Assembly: GCA_964411255.1 (NCBI GenBank)
Contig: CAYPKD010000002.1
Span: forward strand, 34,100-98,099
Reading direction: 5' to 3'
Length of the DNA stretch: 64,000 nucleotides
DNA from: an uncultured Gammaproteobacteria bacterium
GTDB taxonomy: Bacteria; Patescibacteriota; Patescibacteriia; UBA11705; DATKZF01
Part shown: piece after piece, positions 52,875-55,950 of the stretch
How positions within the stretch are numbered: position 1 is the first letter of the stretch
How the letters are laid out: the number at the start of each line of letters is the position of its first letter
Notes under the pieces: model-generated
Database searches by the model: none
What the model saw: only the letters and a program-made list of their open reading frames with translations
What the model was told of the DNA's origin: nothing
Program-made: the position numbers and the translations under genes

Positions 52875-53000
52875 GCAGCCGCGCCCGTTTTGTCGTCCTT
52901 CGCCAAGGCTACGGACGACTCCGCTCGAGATGACAAGGCGGACGCGGCTGCAGCTAGCAATGTTGTGTCATTTCGACCTTGTGGAGAAATCTAATAAAAA
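52875..53000. repeat. ~120-bp structured direct repeat, copy A (gcagccgcg...gtcgtccttcgccaaggctacggacgac...cgcggctgc...ggagaaatctaat)
   Basis: Copy B at 53294-53457 on other side of GIY-YIG gene. Confidence 0.65.
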
Positions 53001-53003
53001 GTA

Positions 53004-53293
53004 TGTCAACAGATCACGATTATTATGTATACATTATGTCAAGCCTCCAAAAAGCAATTTATATTGGAGTGACAAATGATTTAGAACGAAGAGTGAGTGA
53101 ACATAAAGCTAAAATTTACGAAGGATTTTCGAAAAGGTATAATTGTACAATTTTGGTTTATTATGAATATTTTACGGATATTAATGAGGCTATTGATAGA
53201 GAGAAACAGATAAAAAAATGGAGAAGAGAAAAGAAAATTTGGCTGATTGAATCAGAAAATCCAAATTGGAAAGATTTGGCATTTGATTATTAG
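53004..53293 (+). CDS. GIY-YIG nuclease family protein
   Basis: YYVYIMSS..AIYIGVTNDLERRVSEH; start ATG 53004 just after repeat. Confidence 0.75.
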
Positions 53294-53457
53294 TGCAGCC
53301 GTTTGGAAATTGATTAGATCTCTCGACTTCGTCGTCCTTCGCCAAGGCTATGGACGACTCCGCTCGAGATGACAAGGCGGACGCGGCTGCAACCAAAAGT
53401 CTTGTGTCATTTCGACTGGAGGCCCGCTTTTGGTGGGCCGTAATGGAGAAATCTAAT
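53294..53457. repeat. ~120-bp structured direct repeat, copy B (with extra hairpin ggcccgcttttggtgggcc)
   Basis: See copy A. Confidence 0.65.
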
Positions 53458-53515
53458 TAATGGAAATTCCAATAAAAAGTTGAAAAATAACCAAAAGCTG
53501 TTAAAATAGATTTAA

Positions 53516-55321
53516 TTGATAAAAATTATATATATGAAAATTACTGCACACGAATTAAGACAAAAATACATAGATTTTTTTAAAGAAAAAAAGCATAAAC
53601 AAATTGCTTCTGCTTCTTTGATTCCGGAAAATGATCCAACAGTTTTATTTACCACAGCTGGCATGCATCCGCTGGTTCCGTTTTTAATGGGTGAACCTCA
53701 TGCTCAGGGCACACGCCTGGTTGATTTTCAAAAATGTATTAGAACTGGTGATATTGATGAAGTGGGTGACGCTTTTCATCATACTTTTTTTGAAATGCTT
53801 GGCAATTGGTCATTAGGTGATTATTTTAAAAAAGAAACAATTGAATGGAGTTTTGAATTTTTAACTGATGAAAAATGGCTTGGTTTGCCAATAGAAAAAT
53901 TGGCTGTTACTTGCTTTGAAGGAGATGATGATGCTCCCAGAGATGAAGAATCTGCAGAGATTTGGAAAAGTATGGGAGTTTCAGAAGATAAAATAATTTT
54001 TATGCCAAAATCAGAAAATTGGTGGGGGCCAGCAGGTGAGACCGGACCTTGCGGACCAGATACTGAAATGTTTTATTATATTGGCCCAGATGAGCCGGGC
54101 AAAGACAGTAATCCTGGCAATGATGAAGAAAATTGGGTGGAAATATGGAATGATGTATTTATGCAATACAATAAAACTTCAGATGGAAATTATGAACCAT
54201 TGGTTCAAAAAAATGTTGATACAGGCATGGGACTTGAGAGGACATTGGCAGTAATGAATGGATTGTCAGATAATTATCGAACAGAATTATTTTGGCCGGT
54301 TATTCAGAAGATTGAGGAATTATCTGGAAAAAGATATGGACAAAGTCAGGAAGTCACTTTAGCAATGCGGGTGATTGCTGATCATATTAAAGCTTCAGTT
54401 ATGATTTTAGGAGATGAACATGCAGTGGCGCCTTCAAACGTAGATCAGGGTTATATTTTGAGAAGATTAATTCGCAGAGCAATCAGGCAGTCAAAGCAAA
54501 TTGGCATTGAAAAAGATTTTACAGTAAAAATAGCTCAGGTTGTTACCAAAATGATGGTTGAAACATATCCAGAAATTAGAGAAAATGAGCTTAGTATTTA
54601 TGATGAATTAAAAAAGGAAGAGGAAAAATTCAGAGAAACTCTTGAAAAAGGTGAGAAGGAATTTAAAAAAATGTCCAAAGATAAAAAAATTGACGGCAAA
54701 GAAGCTTTTATCTTATTTTCAACCTATGGTTTTCCATTTGAAATGACTAAAGAGATGGCTAAAGAGATTGGAGTGGAAATTAATGAACAAGAATTTTTAG
54801 AAGAATTTAAAAAACATCAGAAACTTTCAAAAACCGCTTCAGTTGGTAAATTTAAGGGCGGGCTGGCTGATGCTTCTGAAGAAACAAAACAGCTTCATAC
54901 AGCAGCTCATCTTTTATTAGCAGCTTTGCGAAAGGTTTTAGGCGATCATGTTGAGCAAAAAGGCTCAAATATCACGCCTGAACGATTACGATTTGATTTT
55001 TCTCATACTGAAAAGATGACTGATGATCAGAAAACTGAGGTTGAAAAATTGGTAAATGAAGCAATTGAAAAAGATTATTCTGTTTCATATGAAGAAATGT
55101 CTTTGGATGAGGCAAAAGAATTGGGAGCAATGGGAGTTTTTGAATCAAAGTATGGGGAAAAAGTTAAAGTTTATACAGTTGGAGAGGGTAAAGATATTTT
55201 TTCAAAAGAAATTTGTGGCGGTCCGCATGTTGAGAGAACTGGAGGACTTGGCAAATTTAAAATAAAAAAAGAGCAGTCCAGCTCTGCTGGGGTGAGGAGG
55301 ATTAAGGCGGTTTTGGAATAG
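53516..55321 (+). CDS. alaS: alanine--tRNA ligase, short form (catalytic + editing domains, ~600 aa)
   Basis: FTTAGMHPL, F.K C.R, MLGNWS class-II AlaRS motifs; HTAAHLL...CGGPHV editing-domain metal site; possible alternative start 53534. Confidence 0.8.
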   Translation: MIKIIYMKITAHELRQKYIDFFKEKKHKQIASASLIPENDPTVLFTTAGMHPLVPFLMGEPHAQGTRLVDFQKCIRTGDIDEVGDAFHHTFFEMLGNWSLGDYFKKETIEWSFEFLTDEKWLGLPIEKLAVTCFEGDDDAPRDEESAEIWKSMGVSEDKIIFMPKSENWWGPAGETGPCGPDTEMFYYIGPDEPGKDSNPGNDEENWVEIWNDVFMQYNKTSDGNYEPLVQKNVDTGMGLERTLAVMNGLSDNYRTELFWPVIQKIEELSGKRYGQSQEVTLAMRVIADHIKASVMILGDEHAVAPSNVDQGYILRRLIRRAIRQSKQIGIEKDFTVKIAQVVTKMMVETYPEIRENELSIYDELKKEEEKFRETLEKGEKEFKKMSKDKKIDGKEAFILFSTYGFPFEMTKEMAKEIGVEINEQEFLEEFKKHQKLSKTASVGKFKGGLADASEETKQLHTAAHLLLAALRKVLGDHVEQKGSNITPERLRFDFSHTEKMTDDQKTEVEKLVNEAIEKDYSVSYEEMSLDEAKELGAMGVFESKYGEKVKVYTVGEGKDIFSKEICGGPHVERTGGLGKFKIKKEQSSSAGVRRIKAVLE

Positions 55322-55354
55322 TTGGACGCCCTGAGTAAATTCACGAAAGACTAG

Positions 55355-55450
55355 TAAGAGATCCCCAGTCAAGCTGGGGATGACGAACTGGACGGGGCGT
55401 TAGACCACCGACATCGGACGTCATTCCCGACCCCGATCGGGAATCTCAGT
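55355..55450. repeat. direct repeat copy A: agatccccagtcaagctggggatgacg ... cgtcattcccgaccccgatcgggaatctca
   Basis: Copy B 55786-55950. Confidence 0.65.
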
Positions 55451-55471
55451 AACATTTGTCGGTGTAATAAT

Positions 55472-55759
55472 ATGAAAACATTCCACGTTTACATGATGGC
55501 TAGTAGAAAAAACGGCCCAATATATATTGGGCTCACCAGTGATTTAGTTAATAGGGTTTATGAACATAAAACTGAAGTTTATGAGGGATTTACAAAAAAA
55601 TATAACATTAAAAGATTAGTATATATTGAAGAATATGATTATTTTGATGAGGCAGTAAGACGAGAAAAACAATTAAAAAAGTGGAATCGAGCTTGGAAAA
55701 TTGAATTAATAGAGCGAGATAATCCTAATTGGTATGATCTTTATTATGAATTATACTGA
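55472..55759 (+). CDS. GIY-YIG nuclease family protein (second copy)
   Basis: FHVYMMAS..PIYIGLTSDLVNRVYEHK. Confidence 0.75.
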   Translation: MKTFHVYMMASRKNGPIYIGLTSDLVNRVYEHKTEVYEGFTKKYNIKRLVYIEEYDYFDEAVRREKQLKKWNRAWKIELIERDNPNWYDLYYELY

Positions 55760-55785
55760 AATGCCCTGCATAAGTATATGAAAAA

Positions 55786-55950
55786 CGAATAAGAGATCCA
55801 CAGTCAAGCTGAGGATGACGTTATGGGCAGGACGAAGTCACAACACCGATACTGATCGTCATTCCTGATTTTTATTGAAGTTTATAAATAATTATCAATT
55901 CTCTTTCAGCCGACTTAAGTCGTCATTCCCGACCCCGATCGGGAATCTCA
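55786..55950. repeat. direct repeat copy B with ~65-nt insertion
   Basis: See copy A. Confidence 0.65.

Follow-up and report, generated by a model that had tools for sequence, protein, structure and literature searches.

Two GIY-YIG genes flanking alaS in a Patescibacteria-like genome are probable members of the Ssn nuclease family and lie between clusters of hairpin motifs

The 64,000-nucleotide stretch of DNA analysed here, referred to as the window (contig CAYPKD010000002.1 of assembly GCA_964411255.1, positions 34,100 to 98,099), contains two small genes, ssn1 and ssn2, that flank alaS and encode GIY-YIG proteins. Homology and motif content indicate that these genes very probably encode single-stranded-DNA nucleases of the Ssn family, accompanied by cognate clusters of the Ssn-related motif (SRM), and that the locus is a new example of a known system. 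The hairpin-containing direct repeats around both genes are best explained as clusters of the recognition motif of this family and not as a passive target that was duplicated. An initial annotation had described two GIY-YIG genes around alaS, each between long hairpin-rich direct repeats. Open reading frames (ORFs), Pfam matches and repeat comparisons confirm this layout. The coordinates given for ssn2, 55472-55759, were correct, and the start given for ssn1, 53004, is revised to 53003. The three genes at the centre of the locus are as follows.

53003-53293, plus strand: ssn1 (GIY#1), 96-aa single-domain GIY-YIG ORF, PF01541 E 7e-17
53534-55321, plus strand: alaS, 595 aa, Pfam domains tRNA-synt_2c and tRNA_SAD
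55472-55759, plus strand: ssn2 (GIY#2), 95-aa single-domain GIY-YIG ORF, PF01541 E 4e-15

The Ssn family was described by Chenal et al. (Nat Commun 2025; PMC11893778) as GIY-YIG nucleases acting on single-stranded DNA, and the motif was named SRM in the same paper, which we found by a full-text search with the motif sequence. SsnA of Neisseria meningitidis is a 94-aa single-domain GIY-YIG protein of CDD group cd10448. Solely in single-stranded form, it binds NTS (CGTCATTCCCGCGMAVGCGGGAATCYRG), a hairpin repeat that is an extended version of dRS3, and it cuts a few nucleotides upstream of the motif. SsnA is inactive on the complementary strand, duplex DNA and RNA, does not bind RNA, and decreases transformation by NTS-containing DNA. 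SsnA and three further homologues, a set that covers three Neisseria species and Wolbachia, were characterised, and each of the four cleaved its own motif as single-stranded DNA. The authors likened NTS-ssnA-NTS to an insertion sequence or a REP/RAYT pair and left the role outside Neisseria open (PMC11893778). A follow-up literature search found no later work on SsnA.

The PF01541 matches, which uphold the annotation of both genes as GIY-YIG nucleases, span residues 7-78 of ssn1 and 5-77 of ssn2, and no other Pfam domain was found in either protein. The two paralogues are 53% identical and lie 2.2 kb apart with alaS in between; the window contains no third GIY-YIG copy. A tblastn search of the plasmid collection PLSDB (7.3 Gb) with ssn2 matched two N. 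gonorrhoeae chromosomes filed as plasmids, with 51.7% identity (E 6e-27) to NZ_CP119142.1. By BLASTP over ~89 residues, the gonococcal protein was 49% identical to ssn1 (E 2e-29) and 52% identical to ssn2 (E 6e-38). The gonococcal gene was identified as ssnA because it has canonical NTS repeats (cgtcattcccgcgcaggcgggaatcc) on its flanks. Through this gene, ssn1 and ssn2 both lie within the E < 1e-10 used to define SsnA homologues in PMC11893778. The residues mutated in that study, SsnA Y6, Y17 and E64, align with Y10, Y20 and E67 of ssn1 and with Y7, Y18 and E65 of ssn2, and these catalytic Tyr, Tyr and Glu columns were invariant in 30 homologues. NCBIfam contained no specific model, the sole match being TIGR01453, a group I intron endonuclease family, at 18 bits against a cut-off of 56. 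The solved structures matched by sequence were solely those of UPF0213 proteins, EF2693 (1ywl) and BH0048 (1zg2), with E values of 3e-4 and 7e-4, respectively.

The repeats around ssn1 and ssn2 are of two kinds. In direct repeat A, 52889-52977 matches 53328-53416 (89 nt, 91%), with a further 17-nt match at its 3' end (52982-52998 and 53444-53460). Direct repeat B has a first part in which 55328-55399 matches 55763-55834 (72 nt, 76%) and a second in which 55408-55473 matches 55910-55975 (66 nt, 80%). When both strands are read, the units decompose into a single type of polar hairpin, 5'-GTCAT / stem / loop / stem / ATC(T), whose stem starts at the AT of GTCAT and is followed by the loop, the complementary stem and ATC(T). 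The units and their SRMs are listed below.

52874-52998: unit A1, closing stem TGCAGCCG/CGGCTGCA at 52874-81/52945-52
52967-52992, plus strand: A1 SRM GTCATTTCGACcttgtGGAGAAATCT, ending 10 nt 5' of the ssn1 ATG
53294-53460: unit A2, closing stem TGCAGCCG/CGGCTGCA at 53294-301/53384-91
53316-53373, minus strand: complete A2 SRM GTCATCTCGAG..CGAGAGATCT, with an inner hairpin (53331-53358) nested in its loop
53406-53454, plus strand: A2 SRM GTCATTTCGAC..GGAGAAATCT, with a nested GGCCC..GGGCC hairpin
55326-55464: unit B1, two closing stems with one SRM in each
55359-55384, minus strand: B1 SRM GTCATCCCCAGcttgaCTGGGGATCT, within stem ACGCCCTG/CGGGGCGT (55326-33/55393-400)
55420-55447, plus strand: B1 SRM GTCATTCCCGAccccgaTCGGGAATCTC, within stem CACCGACA/TGTCGGTG (55406-13/55457-64)
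55763-55975: unit B2, with an imperfect minus-strand SRM (55794-55819) and a complete plus-strand SRM (55922-55949)

The SRMs are thus enclosed by longer closing stems, and their loops can hold nested hairpins. A1 and B2 are damaged versions of the doublets seen in A2 and B1. Specifically, the A1 closing stem contains the inner hairpin at 52892-52919 and the 5' half of a minus-strand SRM, of which ATGAC ends at 52934 and the 3' half is absent. In B2, the 5' half of a further plus-strand SRM stands alone at 55858-55868, and ~50 nt of AT-rich sequence are inserted. Every hairpin quoted in the initial annotation was located at these units: GTCGTCC..GGACGAC at 52892-919 and 53331-358, tcccca..tgggga at 55359-84 and 55794-819, and attcccga..tcgggaat at 55420-47 and 55922-49. 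The SRMs closest to ssn1 are at 52967-92 (plus strand, upstream) and 53316-73 (minus strand, downstream), and those closest to ssn2 are at 55420-47 (plus strand, upstream) and 55794-819 (minus strand, imperfect, downstream). Each of these gene-proximal SRMs has an outer partner on the opposite strand, with the 5' ends facing and 22-38 nt apart. Because every SRM has an oppositely oriented partner, a (-)(+) doublet occurs on both flanks of each gene and is read as a direct repeat. Folded as single-stranded DNA, A1 yielded -28.1 kcal/mol (z -3.6) and B1 -27.2 kcal/mol (z -3.5). A by-eye look for covariation in four B-type units (B1, B2, and the upstream and downstream units of the related locus L174) found their closing stems to be mostly conserved.

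Two further features of the units were noted. Many SRM variants (52967-52992, 53316-53373, 42306-42356 and those at many homologous loci) have five Watson-Crick pairs followed by conserved ..GAG/CGA.. or ..GAC/GGA.. steps, which would give tandem G.A mismatches, and SRM loops often contain GCGAAGC. The latter is a very stable DNA mini-hairpin. Tandem G.A mismatches and GCGAAGC loops would fit a function as single-stranded DNA. In addition, ends of independent metagenome contigs fall within the units, with L004 beginning at 53362 and L003 terminating at 55439. Repeats present in several copies per genome or community would be expected to cause such breaks.

The motif was counted across the window using a generic GTCAT-stem-ATC detector, checked against shuffles and control loci, in place of the published SRM pattern; a looser hairpin detector was dropped as it gave many AT-rich false positives. 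The window contained 11 such hairpins versus 2.1 ± 1.4 in 200 dinucleotide shuffles (maximum 6). Nine of the 11 are convincing complete copies (e.g., GTCATTCCCGAccccgaTCGGGAATCTC), in which the conserved GTCAT precedes and overlaps a palindromic stem and a C follows directly 3' of the palindrome; the other two look like chance matches.

The same hairpin accompanies related genes well beyond this genome. Homologues of ssn1 of ~95 aa number in the thousands, and 80 genomic loci encoding homologues of 49-67% identity were fetched for an analysis of their flanks. These came from Acidobacteriota, Patescibacteria, Chloroflexota, Bacteroidota, Ignavibacteriota, Cyanobacteriota, Pseudomonadota, Clostridia and others. 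Reading the flanks revealed the same kind of hairpin nearly everywhere (e.g., tgtcatcctgagcg..cgaaggacc, gtcattccgagcgaagcgaggaatctc, gtcattgcgagcgaagcgaagcaatc and tgtcattcctgcgtaggcaggaatcc). Within 150 nt of the gene, hairpin density was 5.0 per kb on the upstream side and 4.5 per kb on the downstream side, dropping to 0.1-0.3 per kb at distances above 600 nt; the control value, from 600 kb of alaS loci of Patescibacteria-like genomes, was 0.06 per kb. A hairpin occurred within 300 nt in 59 of the 80 loci (74%) and on both sides in 36 (45%). The published survey found at least one SRM nearby in 71% of homologues and SRMs on both sides in 42% (PMC11893778).

The hairpins are also oriented with respect to the gene. 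Upstream, 54 were on the gene strand versus 23 on the opposite strand; downstream, 45 were on the opposite strand versus 28 on the gene strand. In 19 of 36 loci, the nearest flanking pair was inverted, "+ gene -", the commonest arrangement. Indeed, ssn1 and ssn2 each have a same-strand SRM before the start codon and an opposite-strand SRM after the stop codon. The pairing of protein and motif is kept as well: ssn1-type genes go with GTCATTTCGAC..GGAGAAATCT and GTCATCTCGA[GC]..GAGAGATCT, and ssn2-type genes with GTCATTCCCGA..TCGGGAATCTC and GTCATCCCCAG..CTGGGGATCT, also in other genomes. Loci L175 and L177 (ssn1 type, 67-82% identical) and L174 (ssn2 type, 82%) have the same SRM types at the same positions, and these data show that protein type and motif type travel together. 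The B-type SRM CGTCATTCCCGA..TCGGGAATC shares the first 11 and last 8 paired-core bases, through ..GGGAATC, with the NTS consensus. As the initial annotation had held, the repeats are real, structured and functionally tied to the genes.

Several points weigh against assignment to the Ssn family. First, the published SRM pattern, HGTCWYN(0-2)YYVSBRHN(0-5)WNVSBRGN(0-2)RNCYNB, had 0 matches in the window, although the pattern as implemented does match NTS consensus sequences. The lack of matches arises because the stems in the window have an A (..CCCGA, ..TTCGA) where the pattern demands B (C, G or T). As the pattern matched only 7 of the 80 homologous loci, we read its failure as a limit of a pattern built from 29 genomes and not as evidence against membership: the published pattern is narrower than the motif family. 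Second, the Neisseria comparison was made with an N. gonorrhoeae gene and not with the characterised N. meningitidis protein. Moreover, the ssnA-like frame in NZ_CP119142.1 (L180 592-600) is without an in-frame ATG, having ATA at the expected start, and a nearby ATG in L180 lies in a different frame that meets a stop. Inactivation of the gene in this strain, or use of an unusual start, is possible. The record itself, although filed as a plasmid in PLSDB, is a gonococcal chromosome of 2.17 Mb. Third, natural transformation, the process affected in Neisseria, is not known for this Patescibacteria-like host. Fourth, the single-strand specificity, cut position and role suggested for ssn1 and ssn2 are extrapolated from the four characterised homologues. 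Finally, the cd10448 grouping is that of PMC11893778, and membership of ssn1 and ssn2 in it is putative.

If ssn1 and ssn2 act as the characterised enzymes do, an SRM would fold in DNA that becomes single-stranded, as may happen in replication, repair or DNA uptake. The cognate Ssn protein would bind the folded hairpin plus its conserved flanks and would nick that strand a few nucleotides 5' of GTCAT; its action would exclude duplex DNA and RNA. The likely outcome would be altered recombination or integration of single strands bearing SRMs. We infer such binding of folded hairpins and nicking 5' of GTCAT for ssn1 and ssn2, which probably have separate specificities; by the same analogy, either might have a role in recombination or mobility.

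It could be supposed instead that the hairpins act as RNA, as terminators, stabilisers or regulators of mnmA-alaS-mutS transcripts, and that the GIY-YIG genes are incidental. Transcription probably runs through the units, since every gene here reads in the plus direction. Their stems are strong and, for a genome of 35% GC, rich in GC, and the ssn2 cassette lies inside the alaS 3' region, before a terminator-like hairpin. No T-runs were found at the SRMs, the sole terminator-like site after alaS (55976-55995) being outside the repeats. Similarly, Rfam yielded nothing relevant for the whole window at the gathering threshold or for 52700-56100 at E<=1, and ARAGORN detected no tRNA or tmRNA. The SRMs occur on both strands with a fixed polarity relative to the nuclease gene, and this association persists across phyla whatever the neighbouring genes are. 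The conserved parts include the unpaired GTCAT and ATC flanks, which are important for cleavage and binding by SsnA, a protein that does not bind RNA (PMC11893778). An RNA function is therefore considered extremely improbable.

Assignment to the Ssn family being preferred, we turn to the surroundings of the two cassettes. The window has a GC content of 35%, the intergenic segments around ssn1 and ssn2 reach 44-61%, and both genes are placed among intact housekeeping genes. The remaining features of the locus are:

51797-52873, plus strand: mnmA, 5' of ssn1
3' of ssn2, plus strand: a gene for a 282-aa hypothetical protein, then mutS
55976-56005, plus strand: terminator-like hairpin with a T-run, belonging to the alaS unit and kept in relative R1

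Relative R1 was composed from loci L088, L170, L171 and L172, of which L088 and L170 are 100% identical over their alaS overlap; among 80 metagenomic alaS loci, base-level comparison was possible for L088 only. R1 is 94-95% identical to the window in AlaS, 93% in MutS and 83% in MnmA, and has neither ssn1 nor ssn2. At the upstream site, R1 has exactly one complete A-type unit 3' of the mnmA stop (L170 7070-7210), where the window has two. This unit has the closing stem, a minus-strand SRM with a 3-nt loop and a plus-strand hairpin cCATTTCGAC..GGAGAAATCT in which GTCAT reads GCCAT. Beyond it are an unrelated 209-aa gene and the conserved alaS promoter region. At the downstream site, R1 has ~36 nt of AT-rich DNA after the alaS stop, then the conserved terminator-like hairpin, and no SRM. 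From the conservation of this hairpin, the ssn2 cassette (~650 bp) sits between the alaS stop codon and the terminator-like hairpin.

Other relatives differ further. L174 (AlaS 86%, MutS 83%) has a GIY-YIG gene 82% identical to ssn2 directly after alaS, bracketed by B1-like and B2-like units at the same site as ssn2. In L168 (AlaS 82%), mnmA is followed by a lone plus-strand A-type SRM and then by two other genes, and L173 (AlaS 80%) has other hairpins and a 212-aa gene. No GIY-YIG gene adjoined alaS in any of the 80 metagenomic alaS loci (54-94% AlaS identity). The closest homologues of ssn1, 67-82% identical mutually and to ssn1, are located away from alaS: in L175, one follows yidD and another Polysacc_synt-NUDIX, and in L177 one follows Polysacc_synt. 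Both loci have plus-strand "TTTC" and minus-strand "CTC" SRMs in positions as at ssn1, and L175 also carries the same nested inner hairpin. As R1 is without both cassettes and L174 has the downstream one at the same place, the comparisons show that SRM-ssn-SRM cassettes are gained or lost as blocks between related genomes. They further show that gene content varies within the mnmA-alaS gap, a small islet with SRMs at its borders.

These comparisons bear on how the cassettes arose. The initial annotation saw homing-endonuclease-type insertions, in which GIY-YIG enzymes cut an empty duplex site and insertion duplicated a structured target beside an essential aminoacyl-tRNA synthetase gene. Cassettes are indeed present in some relatives and absent from others, so empty-site alleles exist, and the expectation that a single repeat copy marks the empty site held upstream, where R1 retains exactly one A unit versus two in the window. 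It failed downstream, where R1 has no repeat. The weak TIGR01453 match would also suit a homing enzyme, although it falls far below the cut-off. The rest of the evidence points elsewhere. Proteins of 95 aa with no DNA-binding domain, in no intron, intein or phage context and belonging to the Ssn family do not resemble homing endonucleases, and SsnA cut neither duplex DNA nor RNA, the four studied members cutting their own motif single-stranded (PMC11893778). The supposed duplicated target consists of SRM clusters that are polar, flank homologues from most bacterial phyla in a mostly inverted arrangement and also occur without a gene (3439, 5133, 42306 and 47877). Landing beside an essential synthetase gene is not a general feature, since GIY#1-type homologues adjoin yidD, Polysacc_synt and NUDIX genes in other genomes. 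Finally, deletion between direct repeats would explain the single R1 unit equally. We regard a homing-type origin as very unlikely.

A second reading extends assignment to the Ssn family and is compatible with it: the SRM-ssn-SRM block would be an autonomous mobile element, insertion-sequence- or REP/RAYT-like, in which Ssn, as the strand-specific nuclease, would mobilise the block and scatter solo SRMs. With the (-)(+) doublets facing each other, nicks would then fall on both strands within a spacer of ~30 nt. The prevalence of an inverted pair around the gene, the presence or absence of whole cassettes between genomes with 94% identical AlaS, the solo SRMs elsewhere in the window and the contig breaks within repeats all suit such an element. 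So does the occurrence of the closest ssn1 homologues in another neighbourhood with its own presence and absence (two copies in L175, one in L177), and the same idea was raised by the authors of PMC11893778. Evidence of movement itself is harder to see: neither target-site duplications nor clean insertion junctions can be recognised, the downstream site, where empty, consists of ~36 nt of unrelated AT-rich DNA, and transposition activity has been demonstrated for no Ssn. Nor does the downstream cassette look like a recent insertion. It occupies the same site in L174, and its divergence (82%) is like that of AlaS (86%) and MutS (83%), which fits vertical descent with long residence and loss in R1. 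Recombination between the flanking direct repeats would, moreover, leave a single unit as in R1 without any transposition. The single R1 unit fits insertion with duplication and deletion between the 89-nt direct repeats equally well. On this evidence, an autonomous mobile element is possible but doubtful.

Still more tentatively, SRM-ssn-SRM blocks might be hairpin-directed mobile or excisable modules, the GIY-YIG counterpart of REP/RAYT. If so, the facing SRM doublets, each SRM in its own closing stem, would place nicks on two strands within the ~30-nt spacer. The blocks, together with genes between two blocks (alaS here; Polysacc_synt-NUDIX in L175), could then be excised, replaced or protected in single-strand recombination, and two paralogues with separate motif sets would be independent systems in one small genome.

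Several observations were made on the relatives. In L175 (2940-6003), two ssn1-type genes that are 82% identical bracket Polysacc_synt and NUDIX, each with the same SRM doublets; L177 has one such gene. This "ssn - housekeeping gene(s) - ssn" layout repeats the pattern around alaS in the window. The mnmA-alaS gap lies at 52874-53533 in the window and contains ssn1. In L170 (7069-7905), it encodes a 209-aa TgpA_N-like protein; in L168 (7078-8533), 153-aa and 206-aa proteins; in L173 (7081-8110), a 212-aa protein; and in L174 (7138-7636), an 86-aa ORF on the reverse strand. The window and R1 share a conserved alaS promoter region. Two short metagenome contigs from other samples, L006 and L007, were considered as empty-site strain variants and rejected, as neither carries the R1 allele and both have the complete ssn1 cassette. 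They match the window at 100% over the mnmA 3' end, this cassette and the opening 137 nt of alaS. Beyond this, from 53671 to the end of each contig, identity drops to ~75-80% (30-40 differences per ~100-145 nt), and the divergent part is also only ~80% identical to R1. Either recombination within alaS, beside the cassette, or chimeric assembly accounts for the break.

Hairpins without an adjoining nuclease gene occur at five further places in the window. Related single hairpins had been reported in the lepA leader and near 47867, and both were found, at 31638-31666 and 47877-47903.

3439-3475, minus strand: solo A-type "TTTC" SRM GTCATTTCGACtgaagcgaagcggaatGGAGAAATCT
5133-5176, minus strand: solo SRM-like hairpin GTCATTCC..(nested TGCCTGCC/GGCAGG)..GAATCC
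31638-31666, plus strand: solo inner hairpin module GTCGTCC..GGACGAC in the lepA leader, without GTCAT/ATC flanks and not a typical SRM
42306-42356, plus strand: solo A-type "CTC" SRM GTCATCTCGAG..CGAGAGATCT, inside a GC-rich closing stem
47877-47903, plus strand: solo B-type SRM GTCATTCCCAActtgaTTGGGAATCTC, with an identical 27-nt copy in R1 (L170 2731-2755)

A separate hairpin-rich region occurs between mutS and mutL (59617-61520). This gap of ~1.9 kb is GC-rich (~50%) and contains no convincing ORF. At its borders lie two elements of ~110 nt, each with several hairpins and a GC closing stem (59620-59732 and 61382-61500); the hairpin GTAGGGACAG..CTGTCCCTAC occurs in both. Within the gap are a near-consensus TTGACA-17-TATAAT at ~59775-59803, the motif "t(t)acaatacagttcctgcgg" three times (near 59820, 59994 and 60150) and the repeated "aagataccagagcagg..cctatgct" at 60634 and 61110. 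The gap may encode one or more large non-coding RNAs.

Assignment to the Ssn/SRM system of 2025 gives an odd-looking locus a place without opening a new category. Since the published pattern misses these SRMs and most of those near the closest homologues, the abundance of SRMs outside Pseudomonadota is probably underestimated. Patescibacteria-like genomes carry two diverged Ssn paralogues, each with its own motif pair, and these paralogues are candidates for new specificities in an enzyme family under development as single-stranded-DNA tools. The whole-cassette differences between relatives provide the comparison needed for the mobile-element question raised about NTS-ssnA-NTS in PMC11893778, and the hairpin clusters mark the borders of small islets of variable content beside conserved genes.

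Among known systems, UPF0213 proteins (YazA/YhbQ type) are of the same size and fold class, but their similarity to the ssn proteins is marginal and we know of no association of this group with SRMs. Homing endonucleases of the I-TevI type share the GIY-YIG catalytic core and the polymorphic presence of the gene. They differ in that the proteins described here have no DNA-binding domain and no intron or phage context, and in the expected substrate, which is single-stranded hairpin DNA and not a duplex homing site.

The REP/BIME repeats and their RAYT proteins (IS200/IS605-type Y1) are closer in layout. In both cases, the hairpins flanking a small nuclease gene are thought to be recognised by its product in single-stranded form; numerous further copies, solo or paired, are found elsewhere, and hairpin modules form mosaic clusters. 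The fold and chemistry are GIY-YIG here versus HUH/Y1, and the proteins match solely the GIY-YIG family, so the likeness is one of architecture and not of membership. To our knowledge, strand-transfer activity has been found for no Ssn. The dRS3 repeats are linked to variable gene islets in Neisseria, and the ATTCCC..GGGAAT palindrome likewise borders regions of varying gene content, here the mnmA-alaS gap.

The closest counterpart is SsnA with its NTS repeats. The present system differs in its host, a 35% GC Patescibacteria-like genome; in having two diverged paralogues (53%) 2.2 kb apart around alaS, each with its own SRM pair; in SRMs that fall outside the published pattern, within longer closing stems and with nested hairpins in their loops; and in head-to-head doublets, in contrast to the (+)(-) order of the first upstream pair at the N. 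gonorrhoeae gene. In both systems, a single-domain GIY-YIG protein of ~94 aa with conserved catalytic Tyr, Tyr and Glu (49-52% identity) is encoded by a gene with polar hairpins on either side, each beginning with GTCAT and ending with ATC, and solo intergenic copies occur elsewhere. Indeed, the B-type hairpin is nearly an NTS, with ATTCCC-N10-GGGAAT here versus ATTCCC-N8-GGGAAT.

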